Source: Pseudomonadota bacterium (GTDB taxonomy: Bacteria > Pseudomonadota > Gammaproteobacteria > Burkholderiales > JAJZQI01). From it: a stretch of 64,000 nucleotides of DNA. The notes under the pieces were generated by a model. The model did not search any database, was not told where the DNA came from, and was given only the letters and a program-made list of their open reading frames with translations. The DNA lies in assembly GCA_021851875.1 (NCBI GenBank), contig JAJZQI010000001.1, positions 19,511 through 83,510 on the forward strand, given 5' to 3'. Every line of letters begins with the position of its first letter. Positions within the stretch are counted from its first letter, which is position 1. Positions 4,158-61,576 of this stretch are shown piece after piece. The translations under genes and the position numbers were made by a program.

Positions 4158-4823
4158 ATGCGTTTGGCACTCTTTGATCTCGACAATACACTGCTTGCCG
4201 GCGACAGCGATTTTTCCTGGGCGCAGTACCTGATCGAACAGGGTGTGCTCGATCGTGAGGTGTACGAGGCCCGCAACGAAAAGTTCTACAGCGATTACAA
4301 GAACGGCACGCTGGATATCCACGCATTTCTCGAATTCCAGCTCAAACCGCTGGCCCGCCATCCGCGCTGGCAGCTGGATACCTGGCACGCCGGTTTCATG
4401 GAACGGAAAATCCGCCCCATTATTCTGCCCAAGGCCCGCGAACTGGTGGCACATCATCTGGAGCAGGCCGATCTGGTGGCTATCGTGACCGCCACCAATT
4501 CCTTCGTGACCCGGCCGATCGCCCAGGAATTCGGCATTCAGCACCTCATTGCCACCGAGCCGGAACACCACGAAGGGGAGTTTACCGGCGGTGTGATGGG
4601 CATCCCCAGCTTCCGCGAGGGCAAGGTGGCCCGTTTGAAGCAATGGCTGGAGGAAATCGGCACCGGCTGGGACAAGGTCAGCGAAAGCTGGTTCTACAGT
4701 GATTCGCTTAACGATCTGCCGCTGCTGTCCATTGTGAACAATCCCGTGGCAGTCGATCCCGATCCCACGCTGGAAAGCCATGCCAGACAGGCCGGCTGGC
4801 CGGTCATGAGTCTGCGCAACTGA
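4158..4823 (+). CDS. HAD-IB family hydrolase (SerB-like phosphatase fold)
   Basis: N-terminal DLDNTLL catalytic motif (MRLALFDLDNTLLAGDSD) and a C-terminal YSDSLNDLPLL acidic motif. Confidence 0.8.
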   Translation: MRLALFDLDNTLLAGDSDFSWAQYLIEQGVLDREVYEARNEKFYSDYKNGTLDIHAFLEFQLKPLARHPRWQLDTWHAGFMERKIRPIILPKARELVAHHLEQADLVAIVTATNSFVTRPIAQEFGIQHLIATEPEHHEGEFTGGVMGIPSFREGKVARLKQWLEEIGTGWDKVSESWFYSDSLNDLPLLSIVNNPVAVDPDPTLESHARQAGWPVMSLRN

Positions 4824-4825
4824 AT

Positions 4826-5758
4826 TTGCGCCTGATGCCGCGCATCTTTCTGCCCTTGGCGCTGGCCGCTCTGCTGAGCCTGGCGCTGGGGCTTCTGTGG
4901 GGCAGCGGGGGATTCTCCGTTGATGCCTTGCAGCTGTACTGGGATTTGCGCGCCCCCAGGACATTCGGCGCTTTTGCCTGCGGCGGGCTGCTGGCCCTGG
5001 CTGGCGCTCTGCTGCAGCTGCTGCTGCGCAATCCGCTGGCGGAACCCTATATGCTGGGCGTATCGGGCGGCGCGTCGGTCGCGGTATTCATTGCCGTGCT
5101 GCTCGGCGTGAGCTGGAGTGCCGCCTGGTGGGCCGGCGCGGCCGGCGCGCTGGCCGCGCTGGCGCTGACTTTCAGCTTGTCGCTGTCGGTGCGGGGTTTT
5201 CGCGCCGAGCGCTTGCTGCTGACCGGCGTGGCCCTGGCAGCCGGCTACAGTGCCCTGATTGCCCTGCTGTCCACCTTGGTGCCGCCTGCCGCCTTGCCCG
5301 GAATGAGTTTCTGGTTGCTGGGCGATACCGGCGCGATTGCCCATGTGCCGCTGATCTGGGCATTGCTGCTGGCGGGCCTGGTCATGGCCATAGCGCTTTC
5401 ACCCCGTCTCGACGTATTGCGCCTGGGCGACGACAAGGCGCGCAGCCTGGGGGTCAACCCCGTCGGCCTGCATGTTCTGCTGTTTGTGTTGTCCGCCGTT
5501 TTGACGGCAACCGCCGTCATGCAAGTCGGCGGAGTGGCTTTTGTGGGTTTGATCGGGCCACAGCTGGCGGGACTGTTGTGGGCCGGCAGCTACCGCGGTA
5601 CGGTGCTTGCCAGCGTGTTGGCGGGCGGTACGTTGCTGGTACTGGCCGACGTGCTGGGACGCAGCCTGATCGCCCCTTTGCAGATCCCCACCGGCGTGCT
5701 GACTGCCGCTTTGGGGGTGCCCTGGCTGATATTCCTGCTGCGGCGGAAGAGTTTCTGA
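4826..5758 (+). CDS. ABC transporter permease, FecCD/BtuC family
   Basis: About 9-10 hydrophobic segments. LLLRNPLAEPYMLGVSGGAS and IPTGVLTAALGVPWLIFLL are typical of the family. Confidence 0.85.
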   Translation: MRLMPRIFLPLALAALLSLALGLLWGSGGFSVDALQLYWDLRAPRTFGAFACGGLLALAGALLQLLLRNPLAEPYMLGVSGGASVAVFIAVLLGVSWSAAWWAGAAGALAALALTFSLSLSVRGFRAERLLLTGVALAAGYSALIALLSTLVPPAALPGMSFWLLGDTGAIAHVPLIWALLLAGLVMAIALSPRLDVLRLGDDKARSLGVNPVGLHVLLFVLSAVLTATAVMQVGGVAFVGLIGPQLAGLLWAGSYRGTVLASVLAGGTLLVLADVLGRSLIAPLQIPTGVLTAALGVPWLIFLLRRKSF

Positions 5759-24228: not shown

Positions 24229-24289
24229 AACCGACAACGATTCTGTGTGCTATAAATAAAGCCCATTGTTCATCGCACAGGAGGCTGTC

Positions 24290-24703
24290 ATGAACATCCA
24301 TACTCTACCCGATGCGATTCAGCGCGAACGCGAGGCGCTGCTCAGCGATGCCGTCGAATTGATGCAGGGCCAAGGCTATCGCGATCTGACCGTCCAGGAT
24401 CTGGGCGGCTACCAAGACCCCGCCGAGCTGCTGATTCCAATTCTGAATGTCCATATGCAACCGGATATCGTCGCCACCAATCGGGATGGCGACGATCAGC
24501 TGCTGGGGCTGGTCGAAGTCAGTACCGATCTGGGCGAAGAATTGTGCGGGCGGCGCTGGCAGGCATTCGACAGCTGGGCGAAAAGCCACCACGGCATGAT
24601 GCGTGTTTTCGTGCATCCGGAGGATCTGGCGCGTGCCGAGGAAATTGCCCGTTTGTGGCATATGCAGCCGGATTTCCTGATTCCGCTGGAACGCAAGCAC
24701 TGA
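24290..24703 (+). CDS. hypothetical cytoplasmic protein
   Basis: Trimmed to the ATG at 24290, preceded by CAGGAGG. I recognise no family. See findings for a weak nuclease-fold speculation. Confidence 0.4.
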   Translation: MNIHTLPDAIQREREALLSDAVELMQGQGYRDLTVQDLGGYQDPAELLIPILNVHMQPDIVATNRDGDDQLLGLVEVSTDLGEELCGRRWQAFDSWAKSHHGMMRVFVHPEDLARAEEIARLWHMQPDFLIPLERKH

Positions 24704-24839
24704 TCTTAAACAGTTCGCCGTGCCGCGCGAGAGAGGTTGCTTTTGTTACTATTCCTCCCGTTGGTGTGAACGTTTTGTCTGAGCGCTTGTCCATTTCCGG
24801 CAAGGGGTCTTTAAAAACAGGGCAACAACGGGGGGAGTC

Positions 24840-26162
24840 ATGGCTACAGTGTATTCAGCGTTCGGCAGGTTCTGGCTGTATTTTCTGGTGCTTATCGGTT
24901 TGCTGGCGCCATCCGTGTCGCAGGCTGTGCCGCTGTATGCCCGCCAAACGGGCATGACTTGCGAAGTCTGTCACTTCGGCGGTAACTTCCCCGAACTCAC
25001 GGAGACAGGCCGGGAATTCAAATTGACCGGCTACACCTGGGGCAAGGTCAACGGTTTGCCGCTGGCCGGCATGGTCCTGGCCGGCAAGTCCAGCCTGAGC
25101 AATACCAACGGCTCATCCGATCCCGCCAATGATTTTGCCCACGACAAGTCGGCCCAGTTGCAGCAAGTGAGCCTGTTCACCGGCGGCAGAATCAGCGACG
25201 CGCTGGGCGCATTCATCCAGTGGACTTATGACGGTGTGGCCCAGCATAGCAATCTGGACAACACCGATATCCGTTTTGCCTCGTCTACCCGACTGGCGGA
25301 CAAACCGATGATTTATGGCGTGACGCTGAACAACAATCCGTCCGTGCAAGATCTCTACAACACCACGCCGGCCTGGCGCTTTCCCTACGCCCAGCCTGGC
25401 AGCGCGTTCCAGGGTTATGGCAGCAGCACGCTGATCGAGGGCGCCTTGGCGCAACAGGTGGCGGGGCTGGGCGGCTATGTCGACTGGAATGGCCATGTGT
25501 ATGCCGAATTGAGCGCCTATCGCACCGCCGACAAAATTTTCTCTTTCCTGCGCACCGGTCAGGATGTGGCCGCCAACACCTATCCGCTCAGCGGCACCAG
25601 TCCCTACTGGCGGCTGGCCTATCATGACGCTGCCGGACAGTCGTCCTGGATGGCGGGCGCCTACGGCATGAACGCCGAAACCTTTACCGATCCGCAAGAC
25701 AATACCAGCCCTCGTAACCATTTCTACGATACCGGGGTGGATGGTCAATATCAGTGGGTGGATGGGGCGAATGAATGGTCGGCCCAGGGCACATGGATAC
25801 ATGAAAAAGCCAGCTGGGACGCCAGTAGCGGCAACAATGCGTCTGATACGCTCGACTCTCGCTGGCTCAAGGGCAGCTATTTCTACAACCACAAAATCGG
25901 CGGGACGGTCGGGCTGTTCGATATCAGCGGGAGTCAGGATGCGACTTTGTATGCCAATAACACCAGCCAGACGCCCGATACGCAAGGCTATGTGCTCGAT
26001 TTCAATTATCTGCCGATGAATACACTGAAACTGGGCGTGCAATACACCGGTTATACCAAGTTCAATGGTTCGGCCAGCAATTACGATGCCTCCGGCACGC
26101 TGCCTGGGCGCAATGCGAGGGACAATAACAGCCTGTATGTGTACGGCTGGCTGATGTTCTAG
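24840..26162 (+). CDS. cyc2: fused monoheme cytochrome c / outer-membrane beta-barrel, Cyc2-like
   Basis: Signal peptide ending SVSQA. PLYARQTGMTCEVCHF with a single CXXCH (aa 41-45). The remaining ~380 aa are Gly/Tyr/Asn/Ser-rich and porin-like, ending YVYGWLMF. Confidence 0.7.
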   Translation: MATVYSAFGRFWLYFLVLIGLLAPSVSQAVPLYARQTGMTCEVCHFGGNFPELTETGREFKLTGYTWGKVNGLPLAGMVLAGKSSLSNTNGSSDPANDFAHDKSAQLQQVSLFTGGRISDALGAFIQWTYDGVAQHSNLDNTDIRFASSTRLADKPMIYGVTLNNNPSVQDLYNTTPAWRFPYAQPGSAFQGYGSSTLIEGALAQQVAGLGGYVDWNGHVYAELSAYRTADKIFSFLRTGQDVAANTYPLSGTSPYWRLAYHDAAGQSSWMAGAYGMNAETFTDPQDNTSPRNHFYDTGVDGQYQWVDGANEWSAQGTWIHEKASWDASSGNNASDTLDSRWLKGSYFYNHKIGGTVGLFDISGSQDATLYANNTSQTPDTQGYVLDFNYLPMNTLKLGVQYTGYTKFNGSASNYDASGTLPGRNARDNNSLYVYGWLMF

Positions 26163-26172
26163 GGCTGCAGGC

Positions 26173-26200
26173 AAAAAACCCGGCGCCAGCCGGGTTTTTT
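26173..26200. terminator. bidirectional rho-independent terminator
   Basis: AAAAAACCCGGCgccaGCCGGGTTTTTT between convergent cyc2-like and rubredoxin reductase genes. Confidence 0.85.
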
Positions 26201-26205
26201 GCTTC

Positions 26206-27351
26206 TTACAGCCAGGCGGAAAGTCCTTTGAGCAATTCCTGGCGACGGCTGGTGGCGTTGCCTGCCAGAGCGAAACCGTTGGTGCTGCCGGTCGTGTCCT
26301 GATGTGTCAGGTTGATGCCTTCGGGCGTGGTTTCTCCTTGCCATTGGCCCGCGCTGCCATGCGGCGGCGGAGTGATCACCACCGGGCACCGCGGTGTTTT
26401 GACGATCACCGGCATGGCGGGGTAGGCCACTTCCGTCGGCGTGCCGGCAAGGGTTTTCGCCAGTGCCCGAGCCGCTTGCATGATGGGCTGCACATACGGC
26501 AACCACAGACCGTTCACTGCGGCACAGTCGCCCAGTGCATAGATGTCCGGTACACTGGTGGCCAGCGTGGTATCGACCGTGATCGCATGGCCGGTTTGCA
26601 AACCGGCCTCTTCTGCCAGGGCCGTTTGCGGCACCAGACCGATGGCCGAGAGCACGGCATCGACGACCAGTTGCTCGCCGTTGTTGAAGCGCACGGCCAG
26701 CGTGTTGTCGGGGCCTTCGTCGACGCGCTCAACCTTGGTCAGCGTGTGCATACGCACACCGATATCGCCCAGTTTGGCTGTCAGCCAGCCTGCCACATCC
26801 TCGGGGGCGAGCCGGTTGAGCACCTGGGCGGCCGGGTGCAGCAGGTGGACTTCGAATCCCGCGCTGTTCAGATCATGGGCAAATTCGCAGCCGATCAACC
26901 CGCCGCCGATGATGGCGATGCGCTTTTTTCCCGCAATCGTGTCACGGAAAACACGGTAATCGGCCAGCGTGTTGACGTGCATGATCCGGTCGGCAGCGCT
27001 GCCGGGCAGTTGCGGATCGCGCGGGGTGGCACCCAGGGCGAGCACCAGTTTGCTGTAGCTCATGCGGGCATTGCCCAGGCTAAGAGTGTGAGCGGCCGGA
27101 TCAATCGAATCGACCCGGCTGTGCGCGAGGATGGTCGCCTGCAGCGTGTTGGCCATGGCGACAGCGTCCTGCGACATCAGTTGGTCGGCCGATTTGTTCT
27201 GCGATAAGGCGGAAGACAGCATGGGTTTGGAGTAGAAGCCACCATCATCTGTGGTAATCAGGGTCAGGGGCGTCGTGCTGTCGAGCTTGCGGAATTCCCG
27301 CGCCAGCGTGTAGCCGGCAAGGCCGGTGCCGATAATGATGATGGGGTTCAT
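26206..27351 (-). CDS. rubredoxin-NAD(+) reductase (FAD pyridine nucleotide-disulfide oxidoreductase)
   Basis: MNPIIIIGTGLAGYTLAREFR FAD fold, a second GGGLIGCEFA NAD fold, and location 3' of a rubredoxin gene. Confidence 0.85.
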   Translation of the reverse strand: MNPIIIIGTGLAGYTLAREFRKLDSTTPLTLITTDDGGFYSKPMLSSALSQNKSADQLMSQDAVAMANTLQATILAHSRVDSIDPAAHTLSLGNARMSYSKLVLALGATPRDPQLPGSAADRIMHVNTLADYRVFRDTIAGKKRIAIIGGGLIGCEFAHDLNSAGFEVHLLHPAAQVLNRLAPEDVAGWLTAKLGDIGVRMHTLTKVERVDEGPDNTLAVRFNNGEQLVVDAVLSAIGLVPQTALAEEAGLQTGHAITVDTTLATSVPDIYALGDCAAVNGLWLPYVQPIMQAARALAKTLAGTPTEVAYPAMPVIVKTPRCPVVITPPPHGSAGQWQGETTPEGINLTHQDTTGSTNGFALAGNATSRRQELLKGLSAWL

Positions 27352-27632: not shown

Positions 27633-28109
27633 TTACTTGCCGGTCACGCCCGCGAGGGTTTCGCGGTAGTGGTTGGCGTGTTTCTCTTCCACCTTGGCCA
27701 GGGCGGCAAACCGCTTGGCGGCTTTTTCCAGGGTGGCGGCAAAGCGCTCGGCATGCTCCTTGGATTCGGCGATCTGTTCGTCGATTTCCCTGACCGCCGC
27801 TTCGTTCTTCTCCTGCTCGGCCATGTGGCGGAAAGAAGGGTACATTTCGGTATACTCGTGGGTTTCCCCTGCAATCGCCATCTCCAGGCACTTGGCCGGG
27901 GTCATCTCGTCTTTCGGGTACAGCAGATCGAGGTGGCCGAAGGCATGCATGACTTCCTGTGCAGCGGTTTCCTCGAACACTTTTGCCGTCGTTTCGTCGC
28001 CGGCGGCACGGCAGACGCGGGCAAAGTACATGTATTTGATGTGGGCCATGGATTCGCCGGCAAAGGCGGATTCGATGTTTTTTACAGTTACGGATTCGGT
28101 CGCTTGCAT
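27633..28109 (-). CDS. rubrerythrin-family diiron protein without a rubredoxin domain (erythrin-like)
   Basis: Four-helix ferritin-like pattern with E...ExxH twice (FAGESMAH, QEVMHAFGH, AGETHEYTEMY, EEKHANHY). 158 aa with no C-terminal CxxC pair. Confidence 0.8.
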   Translation of the reverse strand: MQATESVTVKNIESAFAGESMAHIKYMYFARVCRAAGDETTAKVFEETAAQEVMHAFGHLDLLYPKDEMTPAKCLEMAIAGETHEYTEMYPSFRHMAEQEKNEAAVREIDEQIAESKEHAERFAATLEKAAKRFAALAKVEEKHANHYRETLAGVTGK

Positions 28110-28227: not shown

Positions 28228-29145
28228 TTAGCTATTGATAAGTGATACGCACGGAATATCGCTCGCCAGAATGGCTTGGCGCAAAGCGGCCACAGCCTCG
28301 GGGCGGGGAAAACTCTTGCGCCAGGCCAGGGCGATGGTCCGCTGCGGCACCGGCTCGGCAAAGGGCAGGTAGCGCAGCAAAGGGTTTGCTCCAGCGGCCG
28401 TGCAGGGCAGGACGGTTACGCCTGTGCCCGAGGCAACCATGTGACGGATGGTTTCCAGCGAGCTGCCTTCCAGGGTTTTCTGCATTTCGCCCGGCTGCGA
28501 GCTGGGGCGGTTAAGTTCCGGGCAGGCCTGCAATACCTGGTCACGGAAACAATGGCCGGTACCCAGCAGCAGGGTGGTTTCGTCAGCCAGCTCGTCCGGC
28601 TGGACGGTCGTGTGGCTGTGCCAGGGATGGTCGTGCGGCACCGCAACCGTAAAGGGCTCATGGTACAGCGGCTGGATATCCACGCCGGGTTCAATAAACG
28701 GCAAGGCAATGATGATGACGTCGACTTCTCCCTGGCGCAGCCGTTCTGTCAGGCGGGAGGTGAAGTTTTCTTCCAGCAGCAGGTGCAGCTGCGGCGTCGT
28801 GCGTTGCAGCGCGGGAATCAGGCGCGGGTAGAGATAGGGCGCCACGGTGTAGATGGCGCCTACCTTGAGCGGTTCGGCCAAAGGGTCGCGCCCGGATTCG
28901 GCAATTTTCTTGATCAGCCCGGCCTCTTCCAGTACTCGTGCGGCCTGGGCAACAATCCGTTCGCCCACGGCGGTGAGCCGGACTTCCTGTTTGTCTCTTT
29001 CAAATAGCGCAACGCCAAGTTCGTCTTCCAGTTTGCGGATGCCGACCGAGAGGGTGGGCTGGCTGACGAAACACTTGTCCGCCGCGCGGCCAAAATGGCG
29101 TTCGTTGGCAACGGCGACAATGTATTTGAGTTCGGTCAGGGTCAT
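28228..29145 (-). CDS. oxyR: LysR-family hydrogen peroxide sensor OxyR
   Basis: HTH start MTLTELKYIVAVANERHFGRAADKCFVSQPTLS. Redox pair context LLGTGHCFRDQVLQAC, equivalent to OxyR C199/C208. Confidence 0.85.
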   Translation of the reverse strand: MTLTELKYIVAVANERHFGRAADKCFVSQPTLSVGIRKLEDELGVALFERDKQEVRLTAVGERIVAQAARVLEEAGLIKKIAESGRDPLAEPLKVGAIYTVAPYLYPRLIPALQRTTPQLHLLLEENFTSRLTERLRQGEVDVIIIALPFIEPGVDIQPLYHEPFTVAVPHDHPWHSHTTVQPDELADETTLLLGTGHCFRDQVLQACPELNRPSSQPGEMQKTLEGSSLETIRHMVASGTGVTVLPCTAAGANPLLRYLPFAEPVPQRTIALAWRKSFPRPEAVAALRQAILASDIPCVSLINS

Positions 29146-35167: not shown

Positions 35168-36559
35168 ATGAGAGTGACCCCAATTTTGTTGGGCGTGCTG
35201 GCTTTGCCTTTGCCTATGGCCGCGCACGCCTCGACCCGTTCCGACGTGGCCCAGTTGCGCGCAGAGCTGGAAGCCATGCGCAGCAGCTATGAAAGCCGTA
35301 TCGCCCAGCTGGAAAAACGTCTGGCCGAATCCGAGAAAAAAGAAAATGCCTTGGCGCAAAACCGGGAACAAACTCCGCCGGCCTACTCGGCGCCGGTGGC
35401 GGATGCCGCTGTAATGCAAGCGCCTTCCGCGCCGACAACCGACGTGATGCCGAAAATCTCCCTGGTGCTGCAAGGCGGTTACAGGGCGGAGAAGGACATT
35501 GCCAACCGCACGCCGGTGGGATTTTTGCCGGCCTCGAGCGATACCGGCAGCAAACGCGGTTTCAGCGTCGATGAATCGGAACTGGTGCTGGATGCCAATG
35601 TGGACCCGTACTGGAAAGGTCACGCCACGTTTTCAATTATCGATGGCGCGGCCAATGTCGAAGAGGCCTGGTTCCAGTCGCTGCAATTGGGGGATGGGCT
35701 GACGGCCAAGGGCGGGCGTTTTCTGTCGAATATCGGCTACCTGAACAATCAGCATCCGCATATGTGGGACTTTGCCGATGCTCCGCTGATGTATCAGGTG
35801 ATGTTCGGCGACCGTCTGTCGCAAGACGGCGTGCAGGTCACCTGGCTGGCGCCGACCGACCAGTATCTGGAAGTCGGCGCGGAAATCGGCAACGGCAACG
35901 CATACCCCGGCACGTCTCATCCCGGGGCGGGCGATTGGACGGTGTTTGCCCATACCGGCGGCGATGTGGGCATTTCCAGCAACTGGCGGGCCGGTATTTC
36001 CTATGTGCAGGCCAGGGCGGACAATCGCAAGGGCACGATCAACGATCTGAACGATGTCAGCGCAGATACCTATTTCAGCGGCAAGAGCCGTGCCTGGCTG
36101 GCCGATTTCATCTGGAAATGGGCGCCCAATGGCAACAATCATAATCAGTACTTCAAGCTGCAGAGCGAATATTTCCATCGCAATGAAGGCGGGCAGCTGG
36201 ATTGCAGCAATAATCTGGCCTCCGGCGGCAGCTGCGTCGGCCTGACCGACAATTACACCAGTCAGCAATCCGGCTGGTATCTGCAAGGGGTGTATCAGTT
36301 CATGCCGCGCTGGCGCGTCGGTTTGCGGCAGGATCAGCTCAACGTCGGTACGGTCGATCTGAGCGGCAATGCGGCTTACTTGCCGGCGACCAGCTACAAA
36401 CCGGAGAAGACCAGCATCATGCTGGATTATTCGCCGTCCGAATTTTCGCGCTTCCGCGTGCAGTGGGCGCAGGACAGGTCGATCCAGAACCTGCCTGACA
36501 ATGTGCTGACGCTGCAATACATCATGAGTCTCGGTGCTCATGGTGCGCATACCTACTAA
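35168..36559 (+). CDS. outer-membrane beta-barrel protein with N-terminal coiled coil
   Basis: Signal peptide (ALPLPMAAHA). Heptad-like VAQLRAELEAMRSSYESRIAQLEKRLAESEKKE. Porin-like Gly/Tyr/Asn-rich body ending GAHGAHTY. Confidence 0.6.
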   Translation: MRVTPILLGVLALPLPMAAHASTRSDVAQLRAELEAMRSSYESRIAQLEKRLAESEKKENALAQNREQTPPAYSAPVADAAVMQAPSAPTTDVMPKISLVLQGGYRAEKDIANRTPVGFLPASSDTGSKRGFSVDESELVLDANVDPYWKGHATFSIIDGAANVEEAWFQSLQLGDGLTAKGGRFLSNIGYLNNQHPHMWDFADAPLMYQVMFGDRLSQDGVQVTWLAPTDQYLEVGAEIGNGNAYPGTSHPGAGDWTVFAHTGGDVGISSNWRAGISYVQARADNRKGTINDLNDVSADTYFSGKSRAWLADFIWKWAPNGNNHNQYFKLQSEYFHRNEGGQLDCSNNLASGGSCVGLTDNYTSQQSGWYLQGVYQFMPRWRVGLRQDQLNVGTVDLSGNAAYLPATSYKPEKTSIMLDYSPSEFSRFRVQWAQDRSIQNLPDNVLTLQYIMSLGAHGAHTY

Positions 36560-36571
36560 GGGGAGATGGAA

Positions 36572-37471
36572 ATGAAATATCTGGCTCTGTTGTTCGGCCT
36601 GTTGTCCGCCTTGCCGGCTGTGCCGGCCCAGGCGGCTTTGAAGGTGTTCGCCTGCGAACCGGAATGGGGGGCATTGACCCAGGAACTGGGGGGAGCTTTG
36701 GTGTCGGTTTATTCCGCTACCATGGCACAGCAGGACCCGCATCATATCGAGGCGCGTCCCAGTCTGCTGGCGCGTACCCGTAACGCCGATTTGCTGATCT
36801 GCACCGGCGCCGGTCTGGAGGCCGGCTGGCTGCCGGTTTTGCTGGCGCAGTCGGGTAATGCCAAGGTGCAAACCGGCCAGCCCGGCTGGTTCATGGCAAC
36901 CGATGGCCTGGCCTTGCTGGAAAAACCCATCAAGCTGGATCGGGCCATGGGGGATGTGCACGCGGCCGGCAACCCGCACATCCAACAGGACCCGCACATG
37001 ATCGCCGCGGTCGCACAGCGTCTTAACCAGCGCTTGCAACAGATCGATCCGGCCAATGCCGCGACCTACCAGCATAACTATGACAGCTTCAATCAGCGCT
37101 GGCAGGTTGCCATGGCCCGCTGGGAGCGGGAAGCCGCTCCCTTGCGCGGCAAACTGATGGTGAGTCACCACAAAGCCTTTACCTATCTGTACCACTGGCT
37201 GGGCATGACCGAGGTGGGGACGCTGGAACCCTTGCCGGGGATCGATCCGTCGGCCCAGAGTCTGGTGACGCTGCTGCAGCAGCTCAAAGGCAAGAGCGTG
37301 TACGCCATCGTGCGGGCGCCGTATAACGATGCGCGCGCCTCCGAATGGTTGCATGACCATATCGGTGCCCCGGCCGTCGAACTGCCTTTTACCATCGGCG
37401 GCGAGTCGGGGACGGACAATCTGTTCGGTTTCTTCGATGTGACTGTCAAACGCCTGCTGGAGGCGCATTGA
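36572..37471 (+). CDS. znuA: periplasmic metal-binding protein, ZnuA/TroA family
   Basis: MKYLALLFGLLSALPAVPAQA signal peptide. DPHHIEARPS and GNPHIQQDPH metal-site segments. The ATG at 36572 has better SD spacing (AAGGGGAG + 6 nt) than the track start at 36566. Confidence 0.75.
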   Translation: MKYLALLFGLLSALPAVPAQAALKVFACEPEWGALTQELGGALVSVYSATMAQQDPHHIEARPSLLARTRNADLLICTGAGLEAGWLPVLLAQSGNAKVQTGQPGWFMATDGLALLEKPIKLDRAMGDVHAAGNPHIQQDPHMIAAVAQRLNQRLQQIDPANAATYQHNYDSFNQRWQVAMARWEREAAPLRGKLMVSHHKAFTYLYHWLGMTEVGTLEPLPGIDPSAQSLVTLLQQLKGKSVYAIVRAPYNDARASEWLHDHIGAPAVELPFTIGGESGTDNLFGFFDVTVKRLLEAH

Positions 37472-38217
37472 TGAATCTGTCGGTCGATTGGAGTCTGATC
37501 GGCCCCGGGTTGCTGGCGGGCATGCTGGTTTTGGCCACGCATGTCCCGCTGGGTCTGCGGGTGCTGGCGAAGGGAATTATCTTTATCGATCTGGCCATCG
37601 CCCAGGTGGCCGTGCTGGGCGGCGTGATCGGGCATGTCTTCCTGCCCGAAGATGCCGTGCCGTTTGCCGCCGGGGCGGGGGCGCTGCTTGCCGCCATATT
37701 GTTTGCCTGGCTGGAAAAGAAGTCCGTGCGGCATCTGGAGGCGTTGATCGGGGTTATTTATGTGCTGGCGGCTACCTCGGGCATGGTGATGGTGGCGCAT
37801 GATCCGCACGGCGCCGAGGTCTGGCGCGATATGTCGGCCGGCCAGGTGCTGTGGGTGACGCCGTCGCAATTGCATGCGATGCTGTGGGTGACGTTGGTTG
37901 CCGGCGCGGCCATGCGGCTGTTCCGGCAGCGGGGCGTATTGCTCGGTTTCTATTTGCCGTTTGCGCTGGCGATCACTTCGGCCGTGGGGCAGGTGGGTGT
38001 GTTCCTGGTATTCGCCAGTCTGATCATTCCGGCACTGGCGGTCAGCGGCATGGAGCGGTTCCGTTTGCCGCTGGCCTGGCTGACCGGCGCGCTGGGCATG
38101 TTCCTGGGCATGCTCATCTCGCTGTGGCTGGACTGGCCGACCGGGCCGGCCATGGTGCTGTTGATGGCCGGCACGGCTGCCGTTATTGCGTTGTTGCGCA
38201 AGCTGTTCAGGTTTTAA
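37468..38217 (+). CDS. znuB: ABC-3 family permease, ZnuB-like
   Basis: ATGA overlap with znuA. 249 aa, about 7-8 TM, GIIFIDLAIAQVAVLG typical of the family. Confidence 0.75.
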   Translation: MMNLSVDWSLIGPGLLAGMLVLATHVPLGLRVLAKGIIFIDLAIAQVAVLGGVIGHVFLPEDAVPFAAGAGALLAAILFAWLEKKSVRHLEALIGVIYVLAATSGMVMVAHDPHGAEVWRDMSAGQVLWVTPSQLHAMLWVTLVAGAAMRLFRQRGVLLGFYLPFALAITSAVGQVGVFLVFASLIIPALAVSGMERFRLPLAWLTGALGMFLGMLISLWLDWPTGPAMVLLMAGTAAVIALLRKLFRF

Positions 38218-40704: not shown

Positions 40705-41205
40705 TCAGCGGGTGGATTCCAGACTCTGGTTGCGGATCAGGATGCGCGGGCTGATCATGGCATAGCCCTGTTGCTGCCAATAGGACATTTCCGCCATGGC
40801 CGAGGGGACGACCTTGATGAAATCCTGGAAGTCCTTGACGCTGTAGCCATAGTCTCCGGCGGCCAGGGCGCAGACGCGAAAATCCACTCCCAGGCTGGCG
40901 TAATAGCGCATGCGATCGACCGCATCCTTGTATTTCTCATAGTTTTTCGTCGCCACCGTGGCGATTTCGGTGCCATGGATCAGGACGATGATTTTCATGT
41001 CCTCCGGTTGCATGTTGTAAGGCGGTTCCATCAAGGGGTTGATTTGCGAGCGCAGCCAATACAGGGCGCTGTTGATGTAATCGGGGTTGTCGAAATAGAA
41101 CTCGTACAGCGTCTTGGGGGCCTGATAAGGTGTTTCTTCGTAGGTTCCGGCTGCCTGCGCGGCAGGCTGGAACAACAGGCAGAGTAATAGGAATAAGCAG
41201 CGCAT
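40705..41205 (-). CDS. DsrE/DsrF-like family protein with signal peptide
   Basis: MRCLFLLLCLLFQPAAQA. KIIVLIHGTEIATV and FRVCALAAGDYG resemble the DsrE-fold COG1416 group. Confidence 0.5.
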   Translation of the reverse strand: MRCLFLLLCLLFQPAAQAAGTYEETPYQAPKTLYEFYFDNPDYINSALYWLRSQINPLMEPPYNMQPEDMKIIVLIHGTEIATVATKNYEKYKDAVDRMRYYASLGVDFRVCALAAGDYGYSVKDFQDFIKVVPSAMAEMSYWQQQGYAMISPRILIRNQSLESTR

Positions 41206-41284: not shown

Positions 41285-42154
41285 TCAGACGGGGTAGGTT
41301 TTAAGCAGCTTGCGATAGGTTGCCAGGCGACCGGGGTGGATCTTGCCGTCCGCGGCGGCCTGCAAAATGGCGCAGCCGGGCTCCTTGTCGTGGCGGCAGT
41401 TATGGAAGCGGCACTGGCCGAGATAGGGGCGGAACTCGACAAACGCCCGCTGGATTTCCTGCAAACTCAGGTGACCCAGACCGAATTCCTGCATGCCGGG
41501 GGAGTCGATGATGCTGCCGCCGTGCGGCAGCAGATAGAGTTCGCTGTGGGTGGTGGTGTGGCGGCCGGAGTCGAGCGCCGCGGAAATGTCGCGGGTGGCT
41601 GCCCGGGCAGCGGGAATGATGGCATTGAGCAGGCTGGATTTGCCCATGCCGGACTGGCCGATAAACAGGCTGTTCTTGTTGGCGAGATAGGGCAGCAAGG
41701 GGCCGCTGTCCTGTCGCGCGGACAGCCTGAGAATCTCGTAACCCAGTTCGGCATAGGGCGCGAGCCGCGGCCAGGCTGCCTCGGCCTCGGCCGATAAATC
41801 CGCTTTGTTATACACGATCAGGCTGGATGTGTCCGCTGCTTCGGCGGCAATCAGGCAGCGGTCGATAAATTCGGGGTAAAAGCTCGGTACCGGGGCGACG
41901 ACGATGACAATCTGGTCGAGATTGGCCGCGATCAGCTTGCTTTTGAAGGCATCCGAGCGGTAAAACAGGTTGTGGCGGGGGAGAATGCGTTCGATAACGG
42001 CATTTTCGTCGTCTTGCGGCGTGATTTCCACTTCATCGCCGCACACCACGCCGGATTTTTTTCCGCGCGTGGTGGCGCGCCACTGATGGCCCGAGGCGTC
42101 AGCGACAGAATAATGCCGACCGTGGCTGACGACGACGCGGCCGGACTGACTCAC
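41285..42154 (-). CDS. rsgA: ribosome small-subunit-dependent GTPase A
   Basis: Circularly permuted GTPase (VYNKADL, GQSGMGKSSLLN) and zinc knuckle CRFHNCRHDKEPGCA. Confidence 0.93.
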   Translation of the reverse strand: MSQSGRVVVSHGRHYSVADASGHQWRATTRGKKSGVVCGDEVEITPQDDENAVIERILPRHNLFYRSDAFKSKLIAANLDQIVIVVAPVPSFYPEFIDRCLIAAEAADTSSLIVYNKADLSAEAEAAWPRLAPYAELGYEILRLSARQDSGPLLPYLANKNSLFIGQSGMGKSSLLNAIIPAARAATRDISAALDSGRHTTTHSELYLLPHGGSIIDSPGMQEFGLGHLSLQEIQRAFVEFRPYLGQCRFHNCRHDKEPGCAILQAAADGKIHPGRLATYRKLLKTYPV

Positions 42155-42456
42155 TTTTTGAAGTGATAGTAGGTCAGATTGAGGTAGGCGGCAATGTGCG
42201 CTTCGTCATCCGGGAACAGGCCGGCGTTGGTGTTGGTATTGCAGGCGCGAATGCGGCTCACCAGCGCATCGTAGCTCTTGATCATGTGGTCTGGGCGGGA
42301 ATAGACGCTGTCGTCATGGCAGCGCGAACATTTCTGGCTGACCAGCATCTTGCCGATCTTGGGGTCGCCTTTGGTATCTGCCGCCTTGGTGTCGGCCATG
42401 GCATGGCCGGCAAGCAACAGGCTGCTGACTAAAACCGCAAACAGTGAAGGTTTCAT
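42151..42456 (-). CDS. small periplasmic monoheme c-type cytochrome (putative)
   Basis: Signal peptide (LLLAGHAMA) and a single CSRCH. Its stop overlaps the rsgA start by 4 nt. Confidence 0.55.
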   Translation of the reverse strand: MKPSLFAVLVSSLLLAGHAMADTKAADTKGDPKIGKMLVSQKCSRCHDDSVYSRPDHMIKSYDALVSRIRACNTNTNAGLFPDDEAHIAAYLNLTYYHFKK

Positions 42457-61084: not shown

Positions 61085-61576
61085 TCAGCTGACGCGCGAT
61101 TGAATACGGCGGCGCAATTTAATACGGCTGCCGTAATACTCCTGCATCATCTCGCGGGTGATCCGACTGTCGCTCGGATGGTGCGGGAAGGCTTCGGCCC
61201 GGGCGGCCAGCCAGGGTTCTTCCTGATGGGTCAGTTCTTCCAGTTTGGTGGCCGAAAACTGACCATAGACTTCCCAGACTTCGTCGAGAAAATCATGTAC
61301 CTCCCGCGGCAATAGCGACGGGTCGGTCAGCATCATTGTCGGCGGGATCGGATGCCAGGACAGCTGGCGGAAGCGGGCGTAAATCTCTCGGCAGACCGGC
61401 CCATGCCGCCACGCTTCCAGCCGGTTGTGGAACAACTCCTTGCCGTGCATGGCCAGATGCCATGCCTGCGCGTAGTAAAGCAGCTTTTGCAGCTTCAGGT
61501 GGGTCATATTGTCGCCCGCCTTACGGTCTACCTTCAGAATGAAATAATCTGCAATCTGGTGAACACTGATATCCAT
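61085..61576 (-). CDS. Panacea/DUF4065 domain protein (PanA/SocA-type antitoxin family)
   Basis: THLKLQKLLYYAQAWHLAMHGKELFHNRLEAWRHGPVCREIYARF matches the LKLQKLLYY...AW.yGPV core of DUF4065. Confidence 0.8.
   Translation of the reverse strand: MDISVHQIADYFILKVDRKAGDNMTHLKLQKLLYYAQAWHLAMHGKELFHNRLEAWRHGPVCREIYARFRQLSWHPIPPTMMLTDPSLLPREVHDFLDEVWEVYGQFSATKLEELTHQEEPWLAARAEAFPHHPSDSRITREMMQEYYGSRIKLRRRIQSRVS

Follow-up and report, generated by a model that had tools for sequence, protein, structure and literature searches.

The cyc2-like gene on the forward strand of the window (the whole 64,000-nucleotide stretch of DNA analysed here) encodes a true member of the known Cyc2 family, in which a monoheme cytochrome c is fused to an outer-membrane porin and with which some bacteria draw electrons from dissolved iron (Table 1). 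Purifying selection acts on the gene (dN/dS about 0.1), most strongly on the heme domain. With moderate confidence, we regard the product as an outer-membrane protein of the Acidithiobacillus ferrooxidans type (Cluster 2-like) that works by the steps proposed below. Since the family is common, also in soil bacteria, the gene alone is no proof of living by iron oxidation.

Table 1. Features of the cyc2-like gene and its immediate surroundings (window positions)
Feature	Position	Strand	Basis
cyc2-like gene, 440-aa fused monoheme cytochrome c / 16-strand porin	24840..26162, stop codon included	+	ORF, homologues, dN/dS
Predicted signal peptide, aa 1-29, cleavage between SQA and VP	24840..24926	+	By-eye reading of sequence
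Family-defining motif A-V-P-L-Y-A-R-Q-T (AXPX[F/Y]AR[Q/K][T/Y]), A29-T37	24924..24950	+	Definition in PMC8406198
Heme c attachment site CEVCH, aa 41-45	24960..24974	+	C41, C44 and H45 invariant in relatives
PXL motif, P51-E-L53	24990..24998	+	E52 and L53 invariant in relatives
Predicted 16-strand beta-barrel porin domain, aa 75-439, with beta-signal-like YVYGWLMF end	25062..26156	+	AF2 model
Bidirectional intrinsic terminator, common to the cyc2-like gene and the convergent rubredoxin-reductase gene	26169..26204	both	Folding
Block upstream of the gene that is conserved in the orthologous locus L001, possibly the gene's promoter	24766..24820	+	Inferred only

The reading frame begins with ATG and is present as originally predicted, including its single heme motif and the C-terminal Phe that closes the sequence YVYGWLMF. 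Keffer et al. (2021; PMC8406198) define Cyc2 by the motif AXPXFAR[Q/K][T/Y] (PXFAR[Q/K][T/Y] in its screening form), a single N-terminal CXXCH, PXL, a length of at least 365 residues with an N-terminal signal peptide, and a 16-strand porin. The protein exceeds that length, and its signal peptide is predicted by eye from R10, the hydrophobic stretch FWLYFLVLIGLLAP and SVSQA, with small residues at -3 and -1. The predicted junction and mature N-terminus read QA followed by VPLYARQTGMTCEVCHFGGNFPEL. In all homologues the family motif starts at the -1 Ala of the predicted cleavage site, and in the AF2 model of the present protein residues 23-30 are disordered, with low pLDDT.

The Cyc2 signature expected ahead of the heme site is found as AVPLYARQT-x3-CxxCH, in keeping with the family definition. 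Of 258 relatives, 230 carry the motif with the same gap of three residues before the first Cys. Within it, P31 and Q36 never vary among the relatives, and A29, A34, R35 and T37 are at least 90 % conserved. Position 33 is Tyr, not Phe; the two interchange freely among close relatives, and the corresponding motif of the Acidithiobacillus Cyc2 reference is ALPSFARQT. CEVCH, which lies exactly where the original prediction had placed it, is the sole CXXCH of the protein. Conservation of this motif among relatives was proposed as a check, and exactly one CXXCH at the same position occurs in 120/120 best homologues and in 258/258 full-length relatives sampled; the 11 relatives devoid of it are N-terminal truncations. 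PXL follows the heme His at +6, the canonical position being +4; the shift is due to a two-residue GG insertion that hhalign also reports as an insertion relative to Acidithiobacillus Cyc2. Among the 258 relatives, 148 have the Pro at +4 and 73 have it at +6. A PXL four residues past CXXCH is part of the Cyc2 consensus, is no screening criterion and also occurs outside Cyc2 (PMC8406198).

The protein has more than 3000 homologues. Pfam, NCBIfam and PDB sequence searches returned nothing useful; these libraries hold no curated Cyc2 model. A Cyc2 reference was reached through the diheme neighbour found in related loci, from the PDB 1H1O Cyc1 to Cyc1 homologues and from these to rus operon DNA. 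The reference is the Cyc2 of an A. ferrivorans-like locus (L082) that carries a complete cyc2-cyc1-cup-coxBACD-rus operon. It is 80-82 % identical (over aligned positions or the shorter length) to the 5'-truncated Cyc2 of locus L081, where the Cyc1 is a 98 % match to 1H1O. The BLAST comparison with Cyc2 that had been suggested yields an end-to-end alignment with this rus-operon protein (BLASTP 1e-38, 27 % identity over aa 20-440), and hhalign gives a probability of 100 % (E 3.6e-61, 433 columns). Global identity to Acidithiobacillus Cyc2 is 28-33 %. These values measure homology to the A. ferrivorans-like protein; the one tested biochemically is that of A. ferrooxidans. With the family motifs and the predicted 16-strand barrel, they bear out the identification as Cyc2-like.

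Published identities between Cyc2 proteins are 26-35 % within Cluster 2, whose types are A. ferrooxidans, Thiomonas, Ferrovum and Dechloromonas RCB, and 17-23 % between clusters. Since the 27-33 % identity to Acidithiobacillus Cyc2 falls within the published range, and because of the literature on Sulfuricellaceae, our comparison, made with Acidithiobacillus sequences and that literature alone, points to Cluster 2. The published SSN connects AfCyc2 with the same taxa as recovered here. The likeness to Cyc2 thus appears to hold for the A. ferrooxidans-type cluster, whereas the Cluster 1 proteins of neutrophilic iron oxidisers, which had also been implied, are a weaker analogy, given the low published identity between clusters. 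Cyc2 of Mariprofundus ferrooxydans PV-1 and Gallionellaceae, compared by description, has the same architecture and consensus motif (PMC8406198). With Acidithiobacillus ferrooxidans/ferrivorans Cyc2 (rus operon; Cluster 2, McAllister 2020 / Keffer 2021) the present protein shares the signal peptide, A-x-P-x-F/Y-A-R-Q-T, a single CXXCH, PXL, the 16-strand porin, an aromatic C-terminus and alignment over the full length. It differs in being 440 rather than 485 residues long, in its GG insertion with PXL at +6, and in having Tyr for the motif Phe. The hosts differ too, Acidithiobacillus being an extreme acidophile and the window coming from a neutrophile-type betaproteobacterial lineage.

By ValS comparison, the window's organism stands at 75-78 % from Sulfuricellaceae and Gallionellaceae (75-77 % for Sulfuricellaceae). 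It belongs to an uncultured lineage related to both the sulfur-oxidising Sulfuricellaceae and the iron-oxidising Gallionellaceae, from which it is about equally far. An identical ValS occurs on GCA_027356545.1. Sulfuricellaceae are the nearest named taxonomic neighbourhood, and the Sulfuricella and Sulfurirhabdus homologues are 57-59 % identical. A cluster-2-like cyc2 is reported in all described Sulfuriferula species, whose genomes reportedly contain cyc1 too, and Sulfuriferula isolates with this gene grew on Fe2+ in gradient tubes (PMC12285272). No match named Sulfuriferula appears among the homologues listed, so that the likeness is to the published description of its cyc2. Given that Sulfuricellaceae in culture with such a cluster-2-like gene grew on Fe(II), the product may fairly be called a "candidate Fe(II) oxidase".

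The gene lacks the partner that usually accompanies it. A gene for a periplasmic c-type cytochrome lies directly downstream in 66 of 83 related loci (about 80 %), and in 61 of the 83 it is a Cyc1-like diheme form, with A. ferrooxidans Cyc1 (structure 1H1O, E 3e-42) as its closest counterpart. In the closest clade with long contigs, a monoheme cytochrome partner is found 10-30 bp downstream, but both the window and L001, the locus of the 81 % identical orthologue, are without it. Sulfurirhabdus and a 62 % relative likewise have a monoheme cytochrome directly downstream; the window has neither this nor the cyc1 reported for Sulfuriferula. In contrast to the rus-type operon, where cyc2 is followed by the diheme c4 Cyc1, aa3 oxidase and rusticyanin, it has none of cyc1, cup, cox and rus in its vicinity. 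Pfam annotation, covering the window and 10 kb past each end, yielded housekeeping genes only, with no cyc1, mtoAB, terminal oxidase, diheme cytochrome, COX1/COX2 or cupredoxin; over these roughly 84 kb there is also no electron acceptor, oxidase or iron-related gene. The claim that no cyc1, mtoAB or terminal oxidase adjoins the gene is therefore upheld over this wider range. The description "stand-alone" is equally apt: there is no downstream cytochrome, a terminator closes the gene, and what follows is a convergent gene. Elsewhere in the 64 kb just one credible c-type cytochrome ORF exists, for a 101-aa monoheme protein (42151-42456, minus strand). It was considered as a relocated Sulfurirhabdus-type partner and rejected, the likeness being confined to the signal peptide and heme site.

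The terminator, a GC-rich stem between an A-run and a T-run, folds strongly on both strands, as had been claimed (dG -27.4 and -24.7 kcal/mol, z -4.9 and -3.7 for plus and minus, respectively; 0/200 shuffles as stable). A simple terminator scanner was negative here and was overridden by direct folding, the A/U runs having probably been taken into the stem. Upstream the picture is less clear-cut. A conserved same-strand ORF ends 136 bp before the gene, and a search of the upstream sequence revealed no sigma-70 consensus. The block GAACGTTTT...TTGTCCAT is kept in L001 while the remaining spacer has diverged, and its conservation makes it a possible promoter of the gene's own. The gene is plausibly monocistronic.

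The following sequence of events can be proposed for the protein. The Sec signal peptide would be cut off after SQA, and one heme c would become covalently attached to C41/C44 of a small N-terminal domain of about 45 residues, H45 serving as its proximal ligand. The other ~365 residues would form an outer-membrane porin of 16 strands. If the protein behaves like the three Cyc2 proteins tested biochemically, dissolved Fe2+ would meet its one heme, through the pore or at it, and be oxidised. The electron would pass to a soluble periplasmic c-type cytochrome and from there to a terminal oxidase, or uphill via bc1, and in this way the protein may contribute to growth. Because the usual adjacent cytochrome partner is missing, the electron acceptor would have to be encoded elsewhere in the genome.

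A different role for a real Cyc2 cytochrome-porin is suggested by the distribution of its relatives. Those at 38-47 % identity come from Burkholderia, Paraburkholderia, Ralstonia, Massilia, Chromobacterium, Pseudomonas fluorescens, Dyella and Rhodanobacter; this branch of Cyc2 is widespread in heterotrophs not known as iron oxidisers, ordinary soil bacteria included. Many Burkholderia, Ralstonia and Xanthomonas sequences existed in the data of Keffer et al. and were dropped as over-sampled; the same authors allow for additional functions of Cyc2 (PMC8406198). The Cyc2 literature treats as uncertain what Cluster 2/3 homologues do when they are distant from the tested proteins, and warns that Cluster 2/3 homologues call for supporting context. 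The protein might then serve as a general outer-membrane redox gate rather than in energy-conserving Fe(II) oxidation, for instance by oxidising Fe2+ protectively before it enters the periplasm, by exchanging electrons with other soluble or surface donors, or by redox sensing. This would presumably also be its role in the many heterotrophs that carry the gene. Such a role would agree with the lack of a linked respiratory partner in the window and with the LysR (OxyR-like) regulator gene that adjoins cyc2 in both the window and L001. On the other hand, all three biochemically tested members of the family oxidise Fe(II), related Sulfuricellaceae with the same type of gene grew on Fe2+, and some 80 % of relatives retain a Cyc1-like or other cytochrome partner, like the iron-respiration operon of A. 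ferrooxidans. The linkage to peroxide genes does not help either, as it is convergent and only partly conserved. The rubrerythrin and rubredoxin-reductase genes beside cyc2 lie beyond the terminator, and at L001 only the LysR gene is present. A functional unit of peroxide-defence genes and cyc2 was rejected on these grounds. Altogether, we consider the redox-gate role possible but rather unlikely.

The missing partner could also mean that the gene is an orphan remnant, no longer a conduit and either decaying or kept only as a porin. Its stand-alone state, set against the adjacent cytochrome of most related loci and of the closest long-contig clade, fits this reading. However, the reading frame and every family motif are intact, and dN/dS against the L001 orthologue is 0.10 for the whole gene and falls to 0.02 for the heme domain. 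Moreover, stand-alone copies of cyc2 are reported in Acidithiobacillus (PMC10654088), and the layout is common to the 81 % and 57 % relatives. It is a minority state in the family, yet, being so shared, a stable one and no recent accident. An orphan remnant of either kind is thus most improbable.

As far as the number of strands goes, the structure check that had been proposed for the barrel turned out in its favour: the AF2 model (pLDDT 85.3, pTM 0.82) predicts with confidence a barrel of 16 strands, from aa 75 to 439, that follows a small heme domain at the N-terminus. Nearly all Foldseek matches listed are classical trimeric general porins (OmpT, OmpC/F, PhoE, Omp32), the best PDB folds having 16 strands (probability 1.00, E about 1e-8, TM 0.55-0.63 on target length). 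Of 269 relatives, 232 end in F, Y or W. Although the lack of a Pfam or NCBIfam match and the proximity to general porins (9-15 % identity among the 50 best matches) might suggest an ordinary heme-less porin with a chance CXXCH, this is refuted by the CXXCH and flanking motif common to all full-length relatives and by direct homology to Acidithiobacillus Cyc2, and its probability is negligible. General trimeric porins (OmpF/OmpC/PhoE/Omp32; OprP/OprO) share the 16-strand barrel fold but carry no heme domain, and the present protein has no Pfam porin match. As an outer-membrane electron conduit combining a beta-barrel with c-type heme, it would resemble MtoAB, PioAB and MtrCAB. However, these are assembled from two or three separate proteins, among them a decaheme cytochrome and a barrel of 26 strands, whereas here a single polypeptide would provide 16 strands and one heme.

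Returning to the reading as an A. ferrooxidans-type Cyc2, what it implies for the organism is a separate matter. The original prediction had concluded on a microaerophilic iron-oxidising lifestyle. This is not supported, since the branch is common in heterotrophs, the peroxide genes are not conserved beside cyc2 (they are convergent, past the terminator and absent from L001) and the likeness appears to be to the A. ferrooxidans-type cluster, not to Cluster 1. The organism could be a facultative neutrophilic Fe(II) oxidiser that has so far gone unrecognised. It would use a partner-less, Cluster-2-type Cyc2 of the GG-insertion sub-clade, not the Cluster 1 type usual in Gallionellaceae, together with a periplasmic carrier encoded elsewhere. 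We put this forward tentatively, as a possibility with the odds somewhat against it.

No marker gene for microbial iron oxidation is used more widely than cyc2, and the present case shows both the value and the limits of that marker. The gene is confidently recognisable from sequence, yet its branch is spread through heterotrophs, and therefore an iron-oxidising lifestyle cannot be deduced from its presence. If this lineage does oxidise Fe(II), it would join the recent evidence from Sulfuriferula for Cluster 2 Cyc2 at near-neutral pH. A partner-less neutrophilic oxidiser would extend Cluster 2 Fe(II) oxidation at circumneutral pH beyond Sulfuriferula, and would mean that an adjacent Cyc1-type partner is dispensable.

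The N-terminus of the Cyc2-like protein resembles a Sec signal peptide by sequence (R10, a hydrophobic core and SVSQA, directly followed by VPLYARQTGMTCEVCHFGGNFPEL) and its C-terminus reads YVYGWLMF. The hairpin 3' of the gene is highly stable in both orientations, with dG of -27.4 and -24.7 kcal/mol and z of -4.9 and -3.7, indicating a bidirectional terminator shared with the convergent reductase gene. Reading frame, heme motif, C-terminus and terminator are borne out as originally predicted in all particulars visible in the sequence. A consensus terminator scanner made no call at this hairpin, which is among the strongest possible: its A-run pairs with the T-run, so that the stem absorbs the T-tail. 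The scanner may systematically overlook bidirectional terminators of this kind. The small gene directly upstream of cyc2 encodes a protein with neither a Pfam match nor a signal peptide. It is kept at the same position (4703-5116) in L001, the orthologous locus with an 81% identical Cyc2-like protein, but not in any of the other related loci, and may share a transcript with cyc2.

Coordinates of the cyc2-like gene and of other features in the window
Feature	Position	Strand	Remarks
cyc2-like ORF	24840-26162	+	440 aa
Heme motif CEVCH	aa 41-45, nt 24960-24974	+	sole CXXCH of the protein
GC-rich hairpin with flanking A-run and T-run	26169-26204	both	3' of cyc2-like ORF
Upstream small gene	24266-24703	+	137-145 aa; probable start 24290
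Rubredoxin-NAD(+) reductase-like flavoprotein	26206-27351	-	Pyr_redox_2 and Rbx_binding; convergent with cyc2
Rubrerythrin	27633-28109	-	convergent, beyond terminator
LysR/OxyR-like regulator	28228-29145	-	convergent, beyond terminator
Signal-peptide protein	35168-36559	+	463 aa; no Pfam match
ZnuA-like and ABC-3 metal-uptake genes	36566-38217
DsrE-like gene	40705-41205		near the secreted cytochrome gene
Secreted monoheme cytochrome c (CSRCH)	42151-42456	-	101 aa; no Pfam match; between rsgA and M48 peptidase gene
SocA/Panacea antitoxin domain protein	61085-61576	-	amid housekeeping DNA

The protein has no match in Pfam, NCBIfam or the PDB sequences. Cyc2 has been defined by a signal peptide, one CXXCH with PXL downstream, a length of at least 365 aa and a 16-strand porin, and the motif AXPXFAR[Q/K][T/Y] just upstream of CXXCH is described as 'unique to Cyc2' (Keffer et al. 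2021, PMC8406198). The window's protein reads A29-V-P-L-Y-A-R-Q-T37, then CEVCH, then PEL, with Tyr replacing Phe as in many close relatives. An AlphaFold2 model built from a 56-sequence alignment is confident (pLDDT 85.3, pTM 0.82) and predicts short helices between residues 31 and 62 and then exactly 16 beta-strands within residues 75-439. Classical trimeric general porins (OmpT, OmpC/F, PhoE, Omp32) make up nearly all of the 50 Foldseek matches listed against the PDB, at probability 1.00 and, for most, TM 0.55-0.63 on target length. On barrel closure, and on whether the heme domain would lie inside, only this fold match speaks.

More than 3,000 homologues emerged when 5.8 billion proteins were searched. 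Among the top 120, lengths run from 420 to 490 aa, almost all end in an aromatic residue, and each carries a single CXXCH at the same site, inside A-[VI]-P-x-[FY]-A-R-Q-T-x3-CxxCH. P31, Q36, C41, C44, H45, E52 and L53 are invariant in the 56-sequence alignment. When 1.84 billion cluster representatives were searched exhaustively with HMMER, 2,194 relatives came out at E <= 1e-3; with both samples pooled, exactly one CXXCH is present in every one of the 258 relatives of full length. Eleven sequences without the motif all start downstream of the heme site, and are therefore truncations or miscalled starts. The best homologues thus carry the heme motif, and it is conserved among orthologues; its constant position throughout the full-length relatives excludes a porin with a chance CXXCH. 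A two-residue GG insertion after the heme His, which shifts PXL from +4 to +6, is a sub-clade feature and occurs in 73 of the 258 relatives.

A reference Cyc2 was reached through its operon partner. The family's recurrent diheme neighbour best matches the A. ferrooxidans Cyc1 structure 1H1O (E 3e-42, versus 2e-32 for Pseudomonas cytochrome c4). The 1H1O sequence, used as query, recovered Acidithiobacillus Cyc1 proteins, and the DNA around one of them (locus L082) holds a complete cyc2-cyc1-cup-coxBACD-rus operon. The alignment of its Cyc2 (485 aa, as against 440) with the window's protein extends from residue 20 of the latter to its C-terminal residue (BLASTP E 1e-38, 27% identity; hhalign probability 100%, E 3.6e-61, 433 columns). 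The original identification as a Cyc2-like cytochrome-porin is correct and well argued. Global identity to Acidithiobacillus Cyc2 is 28-33%; in the literature, pairs from the A. ferrooxidans/Thiomonas/Dechloromonas/Ferrovum group share 26-35% and pairs from different clusters 17-23%. An SSN study ties AfCyc2 to homologues from Rhodanobacteraceae, Burkholderiales, Chromobacteriaceae and Nitrosomonadales (PMC10654088), the same taxa as recovered here, and Sulfuriferula cyc2 is reported as 'most similar to cluster 2' (PMC12285272). These comparisons, with Acidithiobacillus Cyc2 as the sole reference, point indirectly to Cluster 2.

Pattern matching across 185,579 species genomes gave at least 600 hits (577 confirmed). 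Among the best 80 loci, which were kept, the closest belong to unclassified MAGs (81, 57 and 50% identity); Burkholderia lata, Paraburkholderia, Trinickia, Massilia, Pseudoduganella, Chromobacterium, Crenobacter, Pseudomonas fluorescens HK44, Dyella, Rhodanobacter and Methylophilaceae follow at 38-47%. The family also occurs on Ralstonia solanacearum megaplasmids and on Caballeronia and Acidiphilium plasmids, including those of A. cryptum and A. multivorum (32% identity). Most of these carriers are heterotrophs without reported iron oxidation. Among the plasmid matches H13-H15 (CP084173.1, NC_009469.1, NC_015179.1), a 79.7-kb plasmid labelled Acidithiobacillus ferrooxidans equals that of Acidiphilium cryptum JF-5 in query range, identity, E-value and bit score, which points to horizontal transfer or to an error in how the record was assigned.

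In 83 loci with enough downstream sequence, cyc2 is directly followed by a diheme cytochrome c (61), a monoheme (4), a tetraheme (1) or no cytochrome (17). The closest well-assembled relatives, among them Sulfurirhabdus autotrophica (59%) and a 62% relative, have a monoheme cytochrome of about 105 aa 10-30 bp downstream. No partner of any kind accompanies cyc2 in the window, in L001 or in L002, a 57% relative. Between the window and L001, cyc2 as a whole has a dN/dS of 0.10 (heme domain 0.02, barrel 0.08), so purifying selection acts on it despite its stand-alone layout. The cyc2/Cyc1-like diheme c4 pair (L005, L009, L018 and L041 among others) is widespread in heterotrophs such as P. fluorescens HK44, Burkholderia, Chromobacterium, Dyella and Rhodanobacter; the tetraheme partner in L045 resembles two fused c4 units.

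The window's ValS has a 100% identical counterpart on the NCBI TPA MAG GCA_027356545.1 and shares only 75-78% identity with those of Sulfurimicrobium, Sulfuriferula, Sulfuricella, Sulfurirhabdus, Nitrotoga and Ferriphaselus, which places the source in an uncultured lineage beside Sulfuricellaceae and Gallionellaceae. The window and 10 kb past each end are housekeeping DNA (urease, ilv/leu, ValS, Lpt, glycogen genes); a heme-copper oxidase, MtoAB, a cupredoxin and a diheme cytochrome are all missing from this stretch. The secreted cytochrome is the only other credible c-type cytochrome ORF in the 64-kb window and is a possible periplasmic electron carrier; comparison showed it to be non-orthologous to the Sulfurirhabdus-type monoheme partner, ruling out relocation. 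Elsewhere, the signal-peptide protein encoded immediately upstream of the metal-uptake genes may form an uncharacterised channel in the outer membrane through which metals are taken up, and the SocA/Panacea gene may be half of a toxin-antitoxin pair.

We consider it fairly probable, by analogy, that the protein is an outer-membrane monoheme cytochrome-porin oxidising Fe2+. Dissolved Fe2+ would be oxidised at or in the pore, and electrons would pass from the heme protein to a periplasmic cytochrome encoded elsewhere. This reading draws on the three Cyc2-family members for which Fe(II) oxidation has been demonstrated and on obligately chemolithoautotrophic Sulfuriferula isolates with a cluster-2-like cyc2, which grow on Fe2+ in gradient tubes (PMC12285272). 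The same evidence weighs against the main rival, another or broader redox role for this branch, which fits its spread among heterotrophs and cautions in the literature but seems rather unlikely. An orphan remnant of a cyc2 operon is disfavoured by the purifying selection. The original prediction had gone further, to a microaerophilic iron-oxidising lifestyle, citing a neighbouring peroxide-defence operon; this is unsupported, given the heterotrophic carriers and the lack of that operon in L001. Of the three convergent genes, beside which no rubredoxin gene was seen, L001 has LysR only, so the operon is no conserved partner of cyc2, and the genes for reductase and rubrerythrin appear to be an insertion specific to this lineage.

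The protein is an addition to a known, already catalogued family, and cyc2 has been reported in Sulfuricellaceae, namely in Sulfuriferula spp. (PMC12285272). Mildly notable is the layout found here, conserved, selected and partner-less, in an uncultured lineage that lies between sulfur oxidisers and iron oxidisers.
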